NCBI GenBank assembly: GCA_944364655.1
Contig: CALVWG010000080.1
Coordinates: 2,634 to 66,633, forward strand
Length of the DNA: 64,000 bases
Direction of reading: 5' to 3'
DNA from: an uncultured Bacilli bacterium
GTDB lineage: Bacteria > Bacillota_I > Bacilli_A > RF39 > UBA660
Positions 19,581-35,790 of the stretch are shown here, piece after piece (positions within the stretch are counted from its first letter, which is position 1; the number at the start of each line of letters is the position of its first letter). The notes beneath the pieces are model-generated. The model ran no database searches. It saw nothing but the letters and a program-made list of their open reading frames with translations, and had not been told where the DNA came from. Both the position numbers and the translations under genes were made by a program.

Positions 19581-19624
19581 AAATCCTTTCTAAAAAAGCT
19601 AACAGTTAAAACTGCTAGCTTAAA

Positions 19625-22141
19625 TTATTTTAATTTGGCTAATTTTTCTTTTTCTAAAGCTAATTTTTCTTTTTCTTGTTCAACTAAACTTGCTGGAGCT
19701 TTGTTAATAAAGTTTTCGTTTGCTAGTAAATTTTCTCTTTTTAAAATACTTTTTTCCAAAAATTCAATTTCTTTTTTGATATTTTCTATATCTAAAGTTG
19801 TTTCTTGTTCATTAAATAAAGTAACAGAATAATTTTTATATTCAATTAAAAATTTTGGATAATTTATTTCTTTTTCAATAATAAGGTCGTTCCATTTAAG
19901 CATTTTTTTAATTAATTCGTAATCTGTATTATTATTTAAAAGAATTTTATAATCTTTACCTATTTTAAGTTCAGCTTTTTTATTTCTAAATATTTTTACA
20001 AATTCAATTAAATCATCTATTTCTTTTTCTTCTTCATTGTAAATATATTCTTTTTGATATTTTGGATAATCGCTTAAAGCAATAAATCCTTCTGTTAAAG
20101 GCATTTTGCTATAAATTTCTTCTGTAACAAATGGCATAAATGGATGAAGCATTTTTAAAATATTTTTTAAAACATAATATAATGTTGCCTTTGTGCTTGG
20201 TTGTTCCATATTAAATTTAGACATTTCAATGTAAGAATCACAAAAATCTTCCCAAATAAAATTATATAAAACACTGTTTACATTTTGAAATTCATATTTA
20301 TCCATATATTTAGTAACATCTTTAATCGTTTTTTCTAATTTTGTTAAAATCCATTTATCAATGTTTGTTAAATTATTTAAAGATGTATCTTCGATATTTT
20401 CAATGTTCATTAAAACAAAACGTGATGCATTCCAAATTTTGTTAATAAAATTCCAAGAAGAACGTACTTTTTCTTCATCATAACGTAAATCTGTTCCTGA
20501 TGAAGTTTGGGTTGTTAAATAATATCTTAAGGCATCGGCACCATATTCTTTAATGACGTCCATTGGATCAACGCCATTACCTAAAGATTTACTCATTTTA
20601 CGACCAATTTTGTCTCTAATTAAACCATGAATATAACAATACTCAAATGGTCTTTTACCCGTAAAATGAAGTCCTTGAAAAGTCATTCTGTTAACCCAAA
20701 AAGGAATTATATCATAACCTGTTACCAAAACATTAGTTGGATAATATTTTTGATAGTCTTCGGTAATATTTGGCCAACCTAAAGTACTAAATGGCCATAA
20801 AGCACTGGAAAACCAAGTATCTAATACGTCTTTATCTTGAGTCCAACCTTCTTCTTTAGGTGCTTCCATGCCAACATATATTTCATCACCTTTATACCAA
20901 GCTGGTATTTGATGGCCCCACCAAAGTTGTCTGGAAATACACCAGTCATACGTAATTTCCATCCAGTGATTCATTATTTTTTCATAACGAGCTGGTAAAA
21001 ATTTAACTTTAGTTTCCTTATTTTTTTGATTTTCTAAAACTTTATCAGCTAAAGGACGCATTTTAACAAACCATTGTTTAGATAAGTAAGGTTCTACCAT
21101 TGCATCAGTCCGTTCAGAATGGCCCACACTATGAATAATTTTTTCGACTTTTAATAAGTAGCCTTTTTCTTCTAATTCTTTTACTAATTTTTCTCTGGCT
21201 ACAAAACGGTCCATTCCTTGATAATGAAGAGCATTTTCATTCATTGTTCCATCTGGATTTATGACTACTATTTTTTCTAAATTATGCCTTAGACCAACTT
21301 CATAATCGTTCGGGTCATGGCAAGGGGTAATTTTTACTACACCAGTTCCCTTTTCAGGATCAGCATGCATATCAGCAACAATTGGAATTTCTCGGTTAAC
21401 AATTGGTAATATGGCTTTTTTACCTATGAATTTTTGATACCTTTCATCATCTGGATTAACTGCTAATGCTGTATCACCAAACATTGTTTCAGGTCTAGTC
21501 GTAGCTACATCTAAAAATTCATCACTATCAACAATTGGATATTTTATATGATAAAAAGCTCCTTCAACATCTTTATAAATAACTTCTTCATTAGATAAAG
21601 CTGTTTTGGCTTCAGAATCCCAGTTAATCATTCTTTCACCGCGATAAATTAATCCTTCGTTATAAAGTTTTACGAATACAGTTCGAACCGCTTTACTTAA
21701 TCCTTCATCTAATGTAAAACGTTCTCTGGAATAATCTAAGCTAAGTCCTAATTTAGCCCATTGATTATGAATATTTTCGGCATATTCTTTTTTCCAATCC
21801 CAAGCAACTTTTAGCCAATCTTCTCTTTTCATCGTTCTTGGCTCAATACCCATTTCTTTTAATTTTTTATCAACCTTAGCTTGAGTGGCGATACCAGCAT
21901 GATCCATTCCAGGTATCCATAAAGTATCATACCCTTGCATTCTTTTATAACGAATCATTATATCTTGTAAAGAAACATCCCAAGCGTGACCTAAATGTAA
22001 TTTTCCAGTGACGTTTGGTGGTGGGATAACGATACAAAAAGGTTTACCATCTTTTTTACCTGCTTTAAATATTTCTTTTTCTTTCCAAATTTCATATTTA
22101 TCTTTTTCAACTTCTAAATGATTATATTTTTTTTCTAACAT
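19625..22141 (-). CDS. valS: valine--tRNA ligase
   Basis: 838 aa. PPPNVTGKLHLGHAW (HIGH), KMSKSLGN (KMSKS) and the C-terminal coiled coil. Confidence 0.95.
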   Translation of the reverse strand: MLEKKYNHLEVEKDKYEIWKEKEIFKAGKKDGKPFCIVIPPPNVTGKLHLGHAWDVSLQDIMIRYKRMQGYDTLWIPGMDHAGIATQAKVDKKLKEMGIEPRTMKREDWLKVAWDWKKEYAENIHNQWAKLGLSLDYSRERFTLDEGLSKAVRTVFVKLYNEGLIYRGERMINWDSEAKTALSNEEVIYKDVEGAFYHIKYPIVDSDEFLDVATTRPETMFGDTALAVNPDDERYQKFIGKKAILPIVNREIPIVADMHADPEKGTGVVKITPCHDPNDYEVGLRHNLEKIVVINPDGTMNENALHYQGMDRFVAREKLVKELEEKGYLLKVEKIIHSVGHSERTDAMVEPYLSKQWFVKMRPLADKVLENQKNKETKVKFLPARYEKIMNHWMEITYDWCISRQLWWGHQIPAWYKGDEIYVGMEAPKEEGWTQDKDVLDTWFSSALWPFSTLGWPNITEDYQKYYPTNVLVTGYDIIPFWVNRMTFQGLHFTGKRPFEYCYIHGLIRDKIGRKMSKSLGNGVDPMDVIKEYGADALRYYLTTQTSSGTDLRYDEEKVRSSWNFINKIWNASRFVLMNIENIEDTSLNNLTNIDKWILTKLEKTIKDVTKYMDKYEFQNVNSVLYNFIWEDFCDSYIEMSKFNMEQPSTKATLYYVLKNILKMLHPFMPFVTEEIYSKMPLTEGFIALSDYPKYQKEYIYNEEEKEIDDLIEFVKIFRNKKAELKIGKDYKILLNNNTDYELIKKMLKWNDLIIEKEINYPKFLIEYKNYSVTLFNEQETTLDIENIKKEIEFLEKSILKRENLLANENFINKAPASLVEQEKEKLALEKEKLAKLK

Positions 22142-22144
22142 ATT

Positions 22145-22534
22145 CTAACCTCTATTTCTAACCATTCTTTCATCTATTTTTGATAACATCTCGTCATAAT
22201 TAGCTTTTTGATCTTCATTATCAATTTCTTCATATGTCCCATCTTCTTTTTCTAAGTATACTCTATAACGCATTTTTTCTTCATAAGGCATCAACATACC
22301 TAGTGATCCTTTTTGGTAATCATGGGTTGCTTTAGGAACAAAAATTGTACATTCGGAATTTCTTTTAAATTCAAATATTATTACAGCTTTATGTAAATTA
22401 GGGACATTGTTGCTAATCCTACATAATATTTCATTATGTTGCTCGTATCTATTTTCAAGAGAAAGCCACCTAGCCCACTCGATAATAGTTTCATCTTCAT
22501 AAATTAAAATAACTTTTTTTTCGTTTATATCCAT
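22145..22534 (-). CDS. hypothetical protein (129 aa) co-transcribed between T-box leader and valS
   Basis: ORF track gives 163 aa, but the first 34 codons are the T-box leader. Real start MDINEKK sits behind GAAAGGAAG. 4-nt gap to valS. Confidence 0.5.
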   Translation of the reverse strand: MDINEKKVILIYEDETIIEWARWLSLENRYEQHNEILCRISNNVPNLHKAVIIFEFKRNSECTIFVPKATHDYQKGSLGMLMPYEEKMRYRVYLEKEDGTYEEIDNEDQKANYDEMLSKIDERMVRNRG

Positions 22535-22745
22535 ACAGTTCTTCCTTTCTAAATTAAAAAGGATGATACCAAAGAAGTCTATATTAGACGGTACCATCCT
22601 TAATTTTACTTTGTTTGATATAGCAGAATTCTGCATTTAAACTCCCTTGCAACCTTCTAAAAGCAATTTTATTTGTTTTCACCAACCACAAACTCTCTAT
22701 AAAAAATTAACTTTTATACTCCTCAAGTTCATAATTTAAACATGA
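22535..22745 (-). promoter_or_regulatory. T-box riboswitch leader (probable Val specifier) controlling orf129-valS
   Basis: Minus-strand sequence AAAATTAAGGATGGTACCGTC matches the T-box consensus (AATTAGGGTGGNACCGCG). Terminator AAGGATGGTACC...GGTATCATCCTTTTT overlaps it, giving the antiterminator/terminator alternative. AGAGAGUUUG region upstream is a candidate specifier loop (GUU). Confidence 0.75.
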
Positions 22746-22749
22746 TATA

Positions 22750-22778
22750 ATTATATAGCCTATCAAATAAATTTGCAA
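22750..22778 (-). promoter_or_regulatory. sigma-A promoter of T-box/valS operon
   Basis: TTGCAA (22773-22778), 17-nt spacer, TATAAT (22750-22755) on the minus strand. Confidence 0.6.
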
Positions 22779-22820: not shown

Positions 22821-23786
22821 TTAAGAAATAGTTTCTACAACTTGATCATTAATAGATATTACGACATTATTATTCGTATCAACATCAGTTAAAATTTCAT
22901 CATTAGCAGTTATATCATAAGTTTCACTGGCAATTTTTTTATTAGCTAAATCATATAAATAAAATGTATTATCTACAGTTGTACAGCTTAAATATTTGTC
23001 TATAAAAGATAAATTAGCAAAATCATCTGTTAAAATAGCTTCATTGTTATAATTTATAAGATGATATATTTCTTGGTTGTTTTTAGTAATTATATACGTT
23101 CCTGTATAATCAATTATTGTATCAGCAATATCTACTGTTAATGTAGCGCCATTTTTGTCAGTTAAATTCCAATTACCATTTTTTAAAGTAATAAAGTAAT
23201 CAGTTGCTAATTTGCCCTCGCTATTGACTTCATTTTTTAAACCAATAAAATCATATTCAAATGGTAAAACTATTTCAATAGTATCGGCTAACTTAATAAC
23301 GCCATATTTTTGAGCACTATTTTTAACTATTAGCATATTATCGGCTAAACCAACGCCATAATCTTTAGCACTTACATAAGCAGCCATTTTATATGATGTA
23401 TTATTGACTATATCATAAACAAAAGCTTCTTCACTGGTTTCATTATCATTTAAAATAGCATATCTATTATCGATAATTTTTATTCTTTCGTCCTCATTAC
23501 TTTCGAAAGAATCTAAGCCATAATTGGAATCATCGACCGTATTTAATGCATAATTACAATTTTTAGTAGTACACTCATATATACCTAATAAACTACCATC
23601 TTCTTTGTAAAACCAAAGTTTATTATCAAAGAAAAATTCTTTTCCAACATTTTCTTTAACTGGACTTTCTACGGGACCAGAAAAGCGAAAATAAAGGCCT
23701 AAGCAGGCTAAAGGAACAAAAATAATTAATAAAATGATTATTAATATTAATGCACCTTTTTGTACTTTTTTATCCATTTTAATCAC
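22821..23786 (-). CDS. membrane-anchored extracellular repeat protein (YD/WG-like repeats), 321 aa
   Basis: N-terminal TM (LILIIILLIIFVPLACLGLYF). Recurring KYGVI..LAD / YDL(I/A)NKK motifs and a CxxxC motif shared with the upstream paralog. 8-nt overlap with the upstream gene. Confidence 0.55.
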   Translation of the reverse strand: MIKMDKKVQKGALILIIILLIIFVPLACLGLYFRFSGPVESPVKENVGKEFFFDNKLWFYKEDGSLLGIYECTTKNCNYALNTVDDSNYGLDSFESNEDERIKIIDNRYAILNDNETSEEAFVYDIVNNTSYKMAAYVSAKDYGVGLADNMLIVKNSAQKYGVIKLADTIEIVLPFEYDFIGLKNEVNSEGKLATDYFITLKNGNWNLTDKNGATLTVDIADTIIDYTGTYIITKNNQEIYHLINYNNEAILTDDFANLSFIDKYLSCTTVDNTFYLYDLANKKIASETYDITANDEILTDVDTNNNVVISINDQVVETIS

Positions 23787-26064
23787 TTTCCTTTACTTTA
23801 GGAAAGCCCACTTTATCTGTATATGTGTTATTAGAATTACCTATTTCAACATAAACATTTTCTGAATCAAAAGTTACTCTAAAAGCTTTTGTTCCTTCAC
23901 CATAATAATTAGTAATATTTAATGTCAAACCACTATCATTTTCTTCAGTGATAGTAACTTCTTTATTGTTATAATCATATACATGAACTTTATTATTTAA
24001 AACAGCCGCATAGTATTCATCATATAATTCAATATAATTATATGAATTACTTGAAACTTCTTTGTCATAAGTATGAACAAAATACATTCCATCTTTATAA
24101 GTCTTTAAGTATTTATGAGTGCTATCGACTTCTAAATAATCAACTATGCTACTATTTTTATCAGCAGTTATTTTTTCGCCTTCAGCATCGTATAAAGCAT
24201 ATCCATTATCGCTTTCGACAACATAGTATTTACCTAATTTTTTAATGCTTTTAAAATCAAAAGATAAAACAGGTACTACTTCACTAGAATTAATACTTGC
24301 AATACCAAATTTACCACTTGATTTAGACTTGGCAATAAACATTAATTGATTAGTATTTACAAAGCTTAAACTATTCATGCTTGTATAAGAAGATGTATCA
24401 ACGCTTTCATAAGTAGCTAATTCTTTTTTATTGATTAAATCATATAGAACAATTTTATCACCATCGGATACAAAGACAAATTGTTTATTAATCAAAGGTA
24501 TTGCACCAACATTTTTGCTTTGATCTTTTTCTTTATTGTTGCCAATTGTTTCAGCAAAAAATGAATCATTTGCTAATTTACAATTATTTAAGGTAGAAGA
24601 ATTACTATCAACTTCATTATGATTAGTACAAGGATAGCTACCAATTAAAGTTTCTTTCTTTTCATCAGCGTAAAAATATAAATTTCCTTTAAAATAACTC
24701 ATAAATGCTAATTTGCTTGATAATTTTCCTTCAGATAGATTGATTGAATAGTTTTCAAAATCATCACCATTATAAATATTAATATTTAGTATATTATTAT
24801 TTAATTCATAATCATAAGCTTTTTCAGTTTTAACTAATTTATAATCTTCATAAGTTAATTTTGGATTATAATTTTGATTTTTTAAAGCTAAGCCTTCATA
24901 GCTCATTAAATTGCCTTCATAATCACTTACGAAAAGTTGATTATTAATAACATAAATTAATACATCACTTAAAAGTGTTACATAATCATAGTCTTTATTA
25001 GTTACTTGACTTGCGTTGTAATCATAAACGTTATAAGTTTTGGCAAGAACTTCTAAAACAACATGTTTATCATCAGCCGCAACGATAGGACTTGTAAATG
25101 CTTTAGTTAATATTTTATTATTTAAATCAGTCAAATAATAATTATTGTCTTTTCTAACAGAAATCAACTTTATTTCCTCTTGATTTGGTAAAATTCCTAA
25201 GGAATCATAATTATAAGGAATTACCGTTTCTAATTTATCATCACTAAATTTTTCTAAGCCATACAAACTTTCTTCATTTTTTAAAACAACATAATCAGCA
25301 TATTCATCATAACTTTTAAGATCAAAAACAGTTTTTAAAGTTTTGTTTTCAATTAAATCATACAATTTAATACTTTTATCATTCTCATCTTTATGGTCTA
25401 CAATAAAAACGAATCTTTCTTTGTAAATTTTGGCTGGAACAACTAATTTCTCGCCTTTTTCATCAACATTTATTGGTCCTAAGAAATTGTCACTGTTATT
25501 AACATCCGCCATTTTGCAAAGATTTTCATCTTTATTTTCACATTCATAAGTTCCTAATTCTTTGTCGTTTTCAAAAAAAACAAGTTTACCATTTTCATAT
25601 TTGTAATTATCCATCATTAAGATAACATCTGGTTCATTTTTTTCTAAAGTTTTATCTTTTTTTAATAAGAAAAATAAACCAACACTAATTAATATTAATA
25701 ATAAAACTATCCCACTTATAATTAAGACCTTTTTTTTCTTAGTTAAAGAATTCCATTTATCTTTTAGATTTTTAAAAAAATTCTTTTTATTTTTTTTATT
25801 AGAAGAATCATCATCTTCAACTATTATGGTTTCATCTTCTTGATTTTCTTTTTGTAATTCTTCTTTAGTATTTACAACTGTTTTGAATATTAAATCCGAA
25901 TCATTCATTTGATCATCAAATTCGTTTTGATATTCATTATATTCTTGTTCAATATTATTTAATGCTGCAATGGACAAATCTTTAAGAGTTCCAACTTCTT
26001 TAGTTGTTTCGAGCGTTTCTAGCTCATCCGTTTCATTAAACTCTTCTTTGTTCATTTTTTTCAC
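23779..26064 (-). CDS. large membrane-anchored extracellular repeat protein with acidic cytoplasmic N-terminal tail, 761 aa
   Basis: About 110 aa D/E-rich N-terminus, one TM helix (VLIISGIVLLLILISVGLFFLL), then about 600 aa with periodic (V/L)YD(Y/L)(N/I) motifs suggesting a beta-propeller or WG-like repeat fold. Confidence 0.6.
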   Translation of the reverse strand: MKKMNKEEFNETDELETLETTKEVGTLKDLSIAALNNIEQEYNEYQNEFDDQMNDSDLIFKTVVNTKEELQKENQEDETIIVEDDDSSNKKNKKNFFKNLKDKWNSLTKKKKVLIISGIVLLLILISVGLFFLLKKDKTLEKNEPDVILMMDNYKYENGKLVFFENDKELGTYECENKDENLCKMADVNNSDNFLGPINVDEKGEKLVVPAKIYKERFVFIVDHKDENDKSIKLYDLIENKTLKTVFDLKSYDEYADYVVLKNEESLYGLEKFSDDKLETVIPYNYDSLGILPNQEEIKLISVRKDNNYYLTDLNNKILTKAFTSPIVAADDKHVVLEVLAKTYNVYDYNASQVTNKDYDYVTLLSDVLIYVINNQLFVSDYEGNLMSYEGLALKNQNYNPKLTYEDYKLVKTEKAYDYELNNNILNINIYNGDDFENYSINLSEGKLSSKLAFMSYFKGNLYFYADEKKETLIGSYPCTNHNEVDSNSSTLNNCKLANDSFFAETIGNNKEKDQSKNVGAIPLINKQFVFVSDGDKIVLYDLINKKELATYESVDTSSYTSMNSLSFVNTNQLMFIAKSKSSGKFGIASINSSEVVPVLSFDFKSIKKLGKYYVVESDNGYALYDAEGEKITADKNSSIVDYLEVDSTHKYLKTYKDGMYFVHTYDKEVSSNSYNYIELYDEYYAAVLNNKVHVYDYNNKEVTITEENDSGLTLNITNYYGEGTKAFRVTFDSENVYVEIGNSNNTYTDKVGFPKVKESD

Positions 26065-35683: not shown

Positions 35684-35790
35684 TTCTTACCTCCTTTATA
35701 ATTTAAGACGCGCCATTAAGGTACGAATATTCGTTTATAACCTTTTTTGTGCGGTTTTGATAAAAGCTAATTGCTTTACAAAACAAATAA
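35684..35790 (-). promoter_or_regulatory. 5' leader of rplU operon with perfect 12-bp palindrome (possible L21-leader autoregulatory structure)
   Basis: About 100-nt UTR between the mapped promoter and the rplU ATG containing ACGAATATTCGT. Ribosomal-protein leader RNAs are known upstream of rplU in Bacilli. Confidence 0.4.

Follow-up and report, generated by a model that had tools for sequence, protein, structure and literature searches.

A reduced valine T-box leader very probably controls a two-gene operon of a small orphan gene and valS in an uncultured Bacilli bacterium

We describe here a leader RNA and the operon behind it in a 64,000-nucleotide (nt) stretch of DNA from an uncultured Bacilli bacterium (GenBank assembly GCA_944364655.1, contig CALVWG010000080.1, positions 2,634 to 66,633, hereafter called the window). 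A transcription-attenuating T-box riboswitch specific for tRNA-Val very probably controls a two-gene operon, which consists of orf129, a small gene for a protein of 129 amino acids (aa), and valS, the gene for valyl-tRNA synthetase (ValRS). As judged from sequence comparisons, the riboswitch is a reduced variant that is homologous to the canonical valS T-boxes, and orf129 is probably a member of a divergent small-protein superfamily that occupies the same slot, between the T-box and valS, in related uncultured gut Bacilli. The analysis followed up a reading of the DNA by a model that made no database searches, referred to below as the original prediction. Positions are those of the window, and all features described lie on its minus strand.

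Results

Promoter and identity of the leader

The transcription unit begins with a promoter at 22778..22750, which is followed by the T-box leader at 22741..22556. The sigma-A type promoter proposed in the original prediction is present, with a -35 element TTGCAA at 22778..22773, a 17-nt spacer and a -10 element TATAAT at 22755..22750 (10 of 12 matches to the consensus). Such a match is weak evidence when taken by itself, as seven promoter-type matches were found where 8.4 are expected in shuffled sequences. Because equally good matches are as common in shuffles, the promoter call rests mainly on conservation: the TTGCAA element is invariant in four related leaders, the -10 element reads either TATAAT or TATGAT, and the position is unchanged.

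About 9 nt downstream of the -10 element begins a match to the Rfam T-box family RF00230, which Infernal in E-value mode aligned to 22741..22570 with a score of 64.3 bits (E-value 9e-14 for the local region and 1.2e-11 for the whole window). Homologous leaders precede the same gene pair in relatives, where the RF00230 scores range from 68.8 to 142.3 bits. We aligned 13 diverse short leaders from this related set and counted the 33 base pairs of the proposed structure. Standard pairs were found in 89% of the cells, as compared with 41-63% when the partners were slid by one to three columns, and 21 of the 33 pairs have changed on both sides. None of 500 shuffles equalled the observed pairing percentage, the count of both-sided changes or the covariation score, and three of 500 did so for further pair types. 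The covariation among the 13 leaders thus excludes a chance resemblance, and together with the significant Infernal match it bears out the T-box that had been proposed.

A scan of the whole window with Rfam at the gathering thresholds, on the other hand, gave no T-box match. The original prediction had named an Infernal search without a hit as grounds for abandoning the T-box; the search in E-value mode does give the match, whereas that rule would have discarded the riboswitch wrongly in a default Rfam run. The sole Rfam family to reach its gathering score in the window was the ribosomal protein L21 leader RF00559, located at 35696..35766 (39.6 bits, gathering score 36).

Terminator and antiterminator

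The T-box sequence AAAUUAAGGAUGGUACCGUC is located at 22606..22587 and contains a 7-nt bulge of the UGGNACC type (AAUUAAGGAUGGUACCGUC). As predicted, it lies inside an intrinsic terminator. The antiterminator (22572..22601) is composed of helix A1 (AAGGA/UUCUU), the bulge UGGUACC at 22596..22590 and helix A2 (GUCUA/UAGAC). The terminator (22556..22601) consists of a 12-bp outer stem, with the arms AAGGAUGGUACC at 22601..22590 and GGUAUCAUCCUU at 22570..22559, which encloses the A2 hairpin and is followed by a run of U residues to 22556. Since the 5' arm AAGGAUGGUACC is common to the antiterminator and the terminator, the two folds are mutually exclusive. The terminator has a folding energy of -19.3 kcal/mol (z -5.9; none of 200 shuffles folded as well), and its outer helix is paired in 97.9% of cases across the 13 leaders. 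The antiterminator alone is weak, at -2.3 kcal/mol, which is the expected logic of a T-box because the tRNA supplies the missing stability.

Stem I and the specifier codon

Stem I (22641..22741) contains the full set of motifs: a K-turn AUGAA at 22732..22728, a basal helix formed by CUUG at 22727..22724 and CAAG at 22649..22646, a specifier loop with an AGUA/GAA S-turn, an AGAGA bay and a distal loop (GGUUGGUGAAA) that carries the motif GGUNGGUGNAA. The basal helix is paired in all 13 leaders and all four of its pairs have changed on both sides, the variants being CUUG/CAAG, CUAG/CUAG, CAAG/CUUG, UUAA/UUAA and CUUA/UAAG. Likewise, double changes were observed in five of six pairs in each of the two upper helices.

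On the 3' side of the specifier loop (22650..22657), GAA at 22657..22655 is followed by a spacer G at 22654, by GUU, a valine codon, at 22653..22651 and by the purine G at 22650. The loop of the window, GAA-G-GUU-G, directly precedes the basal helix strand CAAG. Among the relatives, the loops read GAA-G-GUU-G, GAA-G-GUA-G, GAA-A-GUA-G, GAA-GUA-G and GAA-GUU-G. The spacer after GAA thus varies: it is G in some leaders and A in others (L023, L084 and L089), and it is absent in L040, which has GUA, and in L078, which has GUU. Because the spacer is variable whereas GUU or GUA with a G behind it is kept throughout, the specifier is read as a valine codon and not as GGU. From this comparison, the specifier covaries between two valine codons in one and the same register, which is the kind of covariation that the original prediction had suggested looking for.

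The choice of register matters since the codon directly follows GAA in glyQS leaders, and the loop of the window could also be read as GAA-GGU-UG. A glycine T-box would moreover explain the missing Stem II described below, as Stem II is absent from glycine T-boxes (PMC7583486). We consider this very improbable, and the GGU specifier was rejected as contradicted by the register in the relatives, in which GAA-A-GUA-G, GAA-GUA-G and GAA-GUU-G keep only GUN followed by G. The GGU reading would also place a pyrimidine after the codon, where a purine is conserved. Furthermore, the bulge reads discriminator A and the regulated synthetase is ValRS, whereas bacterial tRNA-Gly normally has U73.

The valine assignment put forward in the original prediction is in agreement with these features: a GUU codon and a purine stand directly before the basal helix, the synthetase gene downstream encodes ValRS, and the UGGU of the bulge fits discriminator A. 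tRNA-Val generally carries A73, with which the U of the bulge would pair, and the UGGUACC bulge was invariant in all surveyed leaders in which the motif was found.

From these elements, we propose the following mechanism. Transcription would start at the TTGCAA/TATAAT promoter, and Stem I would present the specifier GUU to the anticodon of tRNA-Val. An uncharged tRNA is predicted to pair through its NCCA end, in which N is discriminator A, with UGGU in the T-box bulge, which would stabilize the weak antiterminator and allow the RNA polymerase to continue into orf129 and valS. With a charged tRNA, the 12-bp terminator and its U run would form instead and transcription would stop at around position 22556.

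A leader without Stem II and without the Stem III hairpin

The leader is unusually compact. Only 38 nt separate Stem I from the T-box sequence, and they contain a single hairpin of 4 bp, GCAG-AAUU-CUGC at 22623..22634, which Rfam aligned to Stem IIA and which shows covariation in three of its four pairs across the 13 leaders. This hairpin is followed by a degenerate F-box, CUAUAUCAA in the window and GCGUUAUCAA in the relatives. Stem II is absent, with positions 105-132 of the RF00230 model deleted, and so is the hairpin of Stem III, with positions from about 163 to 181 deleted. The purines that flank Stem III (RRRxG ... AA) have been kept contiguously, as AAAGUA-AA at 22611..22604 in the window and as AAGUG-AA in the relatives. 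The leaders at the syntenic loci L023 (4023-4234) and L022 (4757-4965) have the full architecture of Stem I, II, IIA, III and antiterminator, and the short form is therefore derived.

Leader length and specifier codon go together. The specifier is GUU in 18 of the 19 distinct leaders with a short distance from the specifier to the bulge (49-66 nt) and GUA in all leaders in which this distance is 83-100 nt, although these cases are not phylogenetically independent. The split hints at a co-adaptation with the tRNA-Val pool.

Several observations weigh against the interpretation of the leader as a functional valine T-box. The score of 64.3 bits falls short of the RF00230 gathering score of 93, so that membership in the family is not reached at the curated cutoff; this low score is due to the deleted Stem II and Stem III positions of the model, as Stem I and the antiterminator align well. 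Stem I was not recovered by folding of the single sequence to its minimum free energy (z -0.33), and it is for this reason that Stem I rests on the covariance model and the covariation. A search with ARAGORN detected no tRNA gene in the window, nor a tRNA-Val gene at any of 52 related loci. Finally, a valine T-box from which Stem II and Stem III are both missing is at odds with what has been published. The natural absence of Stem II from glycine leaders has been explained by their strong GGC:GCC pairing (PMC7583486), and in current reviews the loss of Stem II is regarded as a peculiarity of glycine leaders, and the region of Stem III as indispensable. Our full-text literature search gave no report of natural leaders without Stem III and returned only a review that calls Stem III indispensable. 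That the short form works is nonetheless suggested by its conservation and covariation ahead of an essential gene, and we regard control of orf129 and valS by a valine-specific T-box as very probable.

Start site and coding status of orf129

The longest open reading frame (ORF) at this position encodes 163 aa from an ATG at 22636, inside the leader, and the public gene call P0001 uses exactly that form. The original prediction held that the first 34 codons of this ORF, which correspond to the difference between 163 and 129 codons and run into the leader, had been mis-called as protein and that the gene starts at MDINEKK. Our results agree on both counts. The ATG at 22534 is preceded by the ribosome-binding site GAAAGGAAG at 22549..22541, which is conserved and reads GGAGGA in the relatives. 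The homologues have been called at 129-141 aa with MDINEKK or an equivalent as their start, which is kept in all close homologues. Upstream of the ATG at 22534, the region is conserved in the manner of RNA: its indels do not keep to multiples of three, and the pairs show compensatory changes. That the 163-aa form is a real protein and the T-box resemblance a coincidence has a negligible probability, despite its being the longest ORF and the one in the public gene call, as the extension is absent from all homologues, is conserved as RNA and includes a strong terminator and its U run, and as a conserved ribosome-binding site precedes the inner ATG.

The gene so defined (orf129, 22145..22534) encodes a cytoplasmic, acidic and fast-evolving alpha/beta protein of 129 aa and 15.6 kDa, with an isoelectric point of 5.05. 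In two pairs with unsaturated synonymous divergence (dS), the ratio of nonsynonymous to synonymous substitutions (dN/dS) was 0.33 and 0.24 for orf129, as compared with 0.08 and 0.05 for ValRS. These ratios point to purifying selection on orf129 and to a rate of evolution that is four to five times higher than that of valS.

No match above threshold was obtained for orf129 in Pfam, NCBIfam, PHROGs, PADLOC or the sequences of the PDB. Weak Pfam matches to DUF2167, Dad4 and SH3_14 were dismissed, each being below the cutoff and found in only one of seven family members. With an alignment of seven sequences, AlphaFold2 predicted an alpha/beta fold with a long C-terminal helix (pLDDT 88.8, pTM 0.82); the model from five sequences was unusable (pLDDT 49). 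Foldseek searches with the orf129 model gave no match in BFVD and nothing significant in the PDB, where the best hit was a gelsolin-type domain (adseverin A3) with an E-value of 0.013 and a TM-score of 0.40. We do not consider the likeness to gelsolin and cytidine deaminase meaningful, given the TM-scores of 0.27-0.40 and the high root-mean-square deviations.

The family is small. An exhaustive search with a hidden Markov model (HMM) among 1.84 billion representatives identified four real clusters; an additional hit, the 842-aa repeat protein P0008, was a low-complexity false positive. In GTDB, only two species carry the orf129 family, both of them represented by metagenome-assembled genomes named 'uncultured Bacilli bacterium'.

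Organization of the operon and its surroundings

valS (19625..22141) encodes a valine-tRNA ligase of 838 aa that matches the NCBIfam models PRK05729 (1116.7 bits) and TIGR00422 (1061.8 bits). Only 3 nt lie between the stop codon of orf129 and the ATG of valS at 22141, and the GAGG ribosome-binding site of valS is located inside the end of orf129; the spacing of 4 nt given in the original prediction is the same distance counted inclusively. The 3-nt spacer suggests that the translation of orf129 and ValRS is coupled. An intrinsic terminator after valS (19592..19621) is formed by an 11-bp hairpin and a run of six U residues (-13.9 kcal/mol, z -3.2) and had been missed by a simple pattern scan. 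The transcription unit is thus made up of promoter, leader, orf129, valS and terminator, and the small ORF that the original prediction considered worth characterising is a real, conserved gene that would be co-transcribed with valS. A separate promoter for valS within orf129 is not supported, as the candidates had only 9 of 12 matches and were no more frequent than in shuffles.

Two genes that encode proteins of 761 aa and 321 aa are located upstream of the promoter, at 22821..26064. They are paralogs, each with a hydrophobic N-terminal segment, and the 761-aa gene holds two copies of the C-terminal region of the 321-aa protein (BLASTP E-values 2e-10 and 1e-8). Neither protein matches a Pfam family above the cutoff. 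Throughout the clade, the two genes have been kept in this position ahead of the valS leader.

A slot with variable content between the T-box and valS

At all loci of the orf129 family except L015, genes for membrane proteins of 7xx aa and 3xx aa are followed by the leader, by an orf13x gene and by valS. The order of T-box, orf13x and valS was found in every locus that reaches far enough upstream, with the same exception, although at L009 the available sequence covers the leader in its 3' half only. The conservation of orf129 upstream of valS in relatives, which the original prediction had proposed as a check, is thus broken at a single locus. L015 (421-1813) encodes the most distant orf129 homologue (P0007, 135 aa, 33% identity), which starts inside the end of a gene for a 330-aa membrane protein and is directly followed by a gene for LPG synthase; this otherwise syntenic locus contains neither a leader nor valS. 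Since the flanking genes at L015 are as similar to those of the window as the flanking genes of clade members with the T-box arrangement, the simplest explanation for L015 is that valS was lost or moved elsewhere secondarily and the small gene was retained.

To place this arrangement in a broader context, we surveyed 80 valS loci from metagenomes, mostly of the human gut, in which the distance from T-box to valS was determined with local nhmmer and tblastn searches; the sample is biased in that L001-L014 were retrieved through orf129 itself. Of 63 distinct leaders, 43 are separated from valS by at least one ORF and 20 lie 17-105 nt before valS, with the slot empty. The original prediction had called an extra ORF between a T-box and valS non-standard, which is correct for valS leaders of the textbook type, but in this clade it does not apply. 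The slot contains an HD-domain protein (PF01966) behind 13 distinct leaders, a member of the orf129 family behind eight, a family of 136-151 aa (cluster 3) behind six, a DMP19-like protein (PF14300) behind five and a RimL-like GNAT behind five. The remaining six leaders have singletons: a second ValRS of the PRK13208 type, a tandem pair of small ORFs (L024), three orphans and a membrane protein. Most slot ORFs abut or overlap the start of valS, at distances from -4 to +19 nt.

At the syntenic loci L060, L063 and L041 the leader lies directly before valS, and for this reason the slot has probably been filled secondarily. L026 has a valS that is 85% identical over the first 250 residues and a near-identical leader, together with a slot ORF of 106 aa without detectable similarity to orf129. 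A frameshifted orf129 was considered as an explanation for this ORF and rejected, as there was no similarity at the level of DNA or translated sequence. We also rejected the idea that orf129 is a remnant of the HD-domain slot protein, to which it has no sequence similarity; the predicted model of orf129 includes both beta strands and helices.

The survey provided several further observations on the slot. The commonest occupant, the HD-domain protein of about 250 aa, overlaps the start of valS, for example at L020:4252-5007, at L023:4256-5017 and at about 15 further loci. A 252-aa ORF precedes valS at L029, L031, L032, L039, L069, L080 and L083, with the HD domain shown in L029 and no T-box detected upstream. 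A PRK13208-type ValRS of 803 aa (985.5 bits, above the cutoff) is encoded directly before the bacterial-type valS at L064:253-3001 and L056:560-2989. At L064, a valine T-box lies upstream of the tandem ValRS genes, whereas the L056 contig stops short of the position of the leader; at L056, a 148-aa ORF of the cluster-3 type precedes the tandem pair. The DMP19-like slot proteins, which have a hydrophobic N-terminal segment, occur at the more distant valS loci L081-L094 and L102, and the RimL-like GNAT (Acetyltransf_3) at L097-L103, with RimL as the best NCBIfam match, well below the cutoff. At L043:383-1250, two tandem cluster-3 paralogs of 153 aa and 148 aa are located about 2 kb upstream of valS, from which they are separated by a 97-aa ORF and a gene for a protein of 442 aa that has tandem repeats at its C terminus; no T-box was detected at this locus.

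Relationship among the small slot proteins

The members of orf129 and of cluster 3, the two L024 proteins (L024a and L024b), the slot proteins of L026 and L051 and the N-terminal domain of P0039 are all encoded in the same genomic position, and we examined them as one proposed superfamily. Their N-terminal pattern consists of [KR][KR] and a hydrophobic strand, a turn, a strand that ends in E, and H-x-x-L. They also have in common a motif in the middle of the protein (hydrophobic-F-[LV]-P ... Q) and a helix at the C terminus. The statistical evidence for a relationship is mixed. Direct HMM comparisons of the orf129 family with cluster 3 were not significant (E-values 0.15-0.27), while hhalign of orf129 against the extended cluster-3 family gave a full-length collinear alignment with a global P-value of 8e-5 and a probability of 32%.

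A possible link between these families is provided by P0039 (JGI), a single ORF of 1005 aa that encodes a ValRS homologue (73% identity) with an N-terminal extension of 166 residues. The extension matches the cluster-3 HMM (E-value 1e-5), L024a (BLASTP, 6e-6) and the orf129-family protein of L009 (1e-3). When the profile was extended with this domain, the next-best matches were L009 (1e-3), L026 (5e-3) and L024b (9e-3), all of them above the first background ORF, a ribosome recycling factor that sets the noise level at an E-value of about 0.02. Considering these similarities jointly, a common ancestry of the small slot proteins is probable, clearly better than even and well short of certain.

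Discussion

Why does an orphan gene stand between a T-box and the essential gene that it very probably regulates? One hypothesis is that orf129 is an accessory partner of ValRS. This idea is based on the persistent adjacency of the two genes and on the one in-frame fusion, and we give it a tentative place, at somewhat less than even probability. In its favor, the adjacency to valS and the close abutment persist across lineages in which the small protein has diverged almost beyond recognition. A number of findings speak against it. The slot also holds unrelated genes, and the homologue at L015 has been kept with neither a T-box nor valS. The P0039 fusion is known from a single gene call on a single contig, and orf129 of the window itself matched the extended profile with an E-value of 0.08, which is below the noise level.

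An alternative hypothesis, about as probable as the first and likewise below even, is that orf129 is a passenger in a slot that tolerates insertions and offers conditional and reasonably strong expression, without any role in relation to ValRS or valine. Even close relatives differ in the content of the slot, although their leader and valS are conserved, and the occupants are as diverse as an HD-domain protein, a RimL-like GNAT, a DMP19-like protein, membrane proteins, a second ValRS and several orphans. L026, with its closely related valS and leader, has an ORF unlike orf129; the T-box stands directly before valS in L060, L063 and L041; L015 retains an orf129 homologue in the absence of both T-box and valS; and the dN/dS ratio of orf129 is four to five times the value of valS. 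However, the small slot proteins look remotely related rather than random, most slot ORFs abut or overlap the start of valS, one domain of the slot type has been fused in frame to ValRS, and orf129 is under purifying selection.

It could also be imagined that the slot is a guard position, at which the T-box induces protection against inhibitors or toxins that interfere with valyl charging, and that orf129 has an immunity or shielding role. Mimics of aminoacyl-adenylates are detoxified by RimL and MccE through acetylation, and the slot includes a GNAT for which RimL is the best, although sub-cutoff, match. It also includes a second ValRS of a different type (PRK13208) and HD-domain phosphohydrolases, and the fast evolution of the small proteins would be consistent with an arms race. 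The argument is entirely circumstantial, however: none of the slot proteins gave a match in PADLOC or to an immunity family, the assignments as GNAT and HD proteins are of a generic kind and do not reach the cutoffs of the families, and L015 keeps its orf129 homologue without T-box control. We therefore consider the guard hypothesis quite unlikely.

In a broader scenario, the orf129 superfamily would represent an unrecognised partner or guardian of ValRS that is made stoichiometrically with it under the control of tRNA-Val, and the slot would be a dedicated site at which one lineage of gut Bacilli exchanges modules that protect or tune charging, such as small binders, a RimL-like acetyltransferase, an HD hydrolase or a second ValRS, while the Stem II and Stem III hairpins would be dispensable in a T-box that is not of the glycine type. 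As a whole, this scenario is unlikely, though not far-fetched.

Irrespective of the function of orf129, the findings have practical consequences for annotation. A default Rfam run misses the riboswitch and gene callers extend the ORF by 34 codons into the leader, and the same error probably recurs across the clade. Furthermore, conserved and covarying valine leaders without Stem II and Stem III ahead of an essential gene constitute a natural test of which T-box domains are required. A fast-evolving family of slot proteins, once fused to ValRS, is a concrete candidate for an accessory factor of ValRS in an uncultured gut lineage.

Comparison with known systems

Sister loci contain slot genes that are reminiscent of known resistance arrangements. 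T-box-controlled second, resistant synthetases have a parallel in the second ValRS at L064 and L056, and the GNATs that detoxify adenylates, RimL and MccE, have one in the RimL-like GNAT at L097-L103. The orf129 protein resembles neither of them and is linked to them by genomic position only.

The closest counterparts of the leader are the canonical valS T-boxes of RF00230, including those at L023 and L022. They have in common with it a Stem I with K-turn, S-turn specifier loop, AG bay and distal loop, a valine specifier followed by a purine, the UGGUACC bulge, mutually exclusive antiterminator and terminator folds, and valS downstream. The leader of the window differs from them in lacking the Stem II and Stem III hairpins, in scoring below the Rfam gathering threshold, in having GUU where the long leaders have GUA, and in the 129-codon gene that precedes valS. 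With the glyQS leaders it shares a short linker without Stem II, and these are so far the described natural class of Stem II-less leaders (PMC7583486). The glyQS leaders retain Stem III and have GGC directly after GAA, whereas the leader in the window has GUU, no Stem III, a IIA-like hairpin and a remnant of the F-box. The pairing with GUU is A/U-rich, for which the published rationale for glycine would expect the support of Stem II.

T-boxes that are followed by an ORF for something other than a synthetase have been described before. In a previous survey, 8% of T-boxes preceded genes of unknown function or without an apparent link to amino acid metabolism, and the genes spr0489 of Streptococcus pneumoniae and str0474 of Streptococcus thermophilus, located behind valine T-boxes, were described as 'Val-tRNA ligase related hypothetical' (Wels et al., 2008; PMC2494555). 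These genes, and rtpA of Bacillus subtilis, which encodes anti-TRAP behind a tryptophan T-box, resemble orf129 in that a non-synthetase ORF stands directly behind a T-box of matching specificity. We set the streptococcal ORFs beside orf129 by their description only; orf129 is demonstrably coding, conserved and tightly abutting valS, and the content of its slot turns over across the clade. What is new here is the doubly reduced valine leader, the variable slot that extends throughout the clade and an orphan family of small proteins that is tied to valS.

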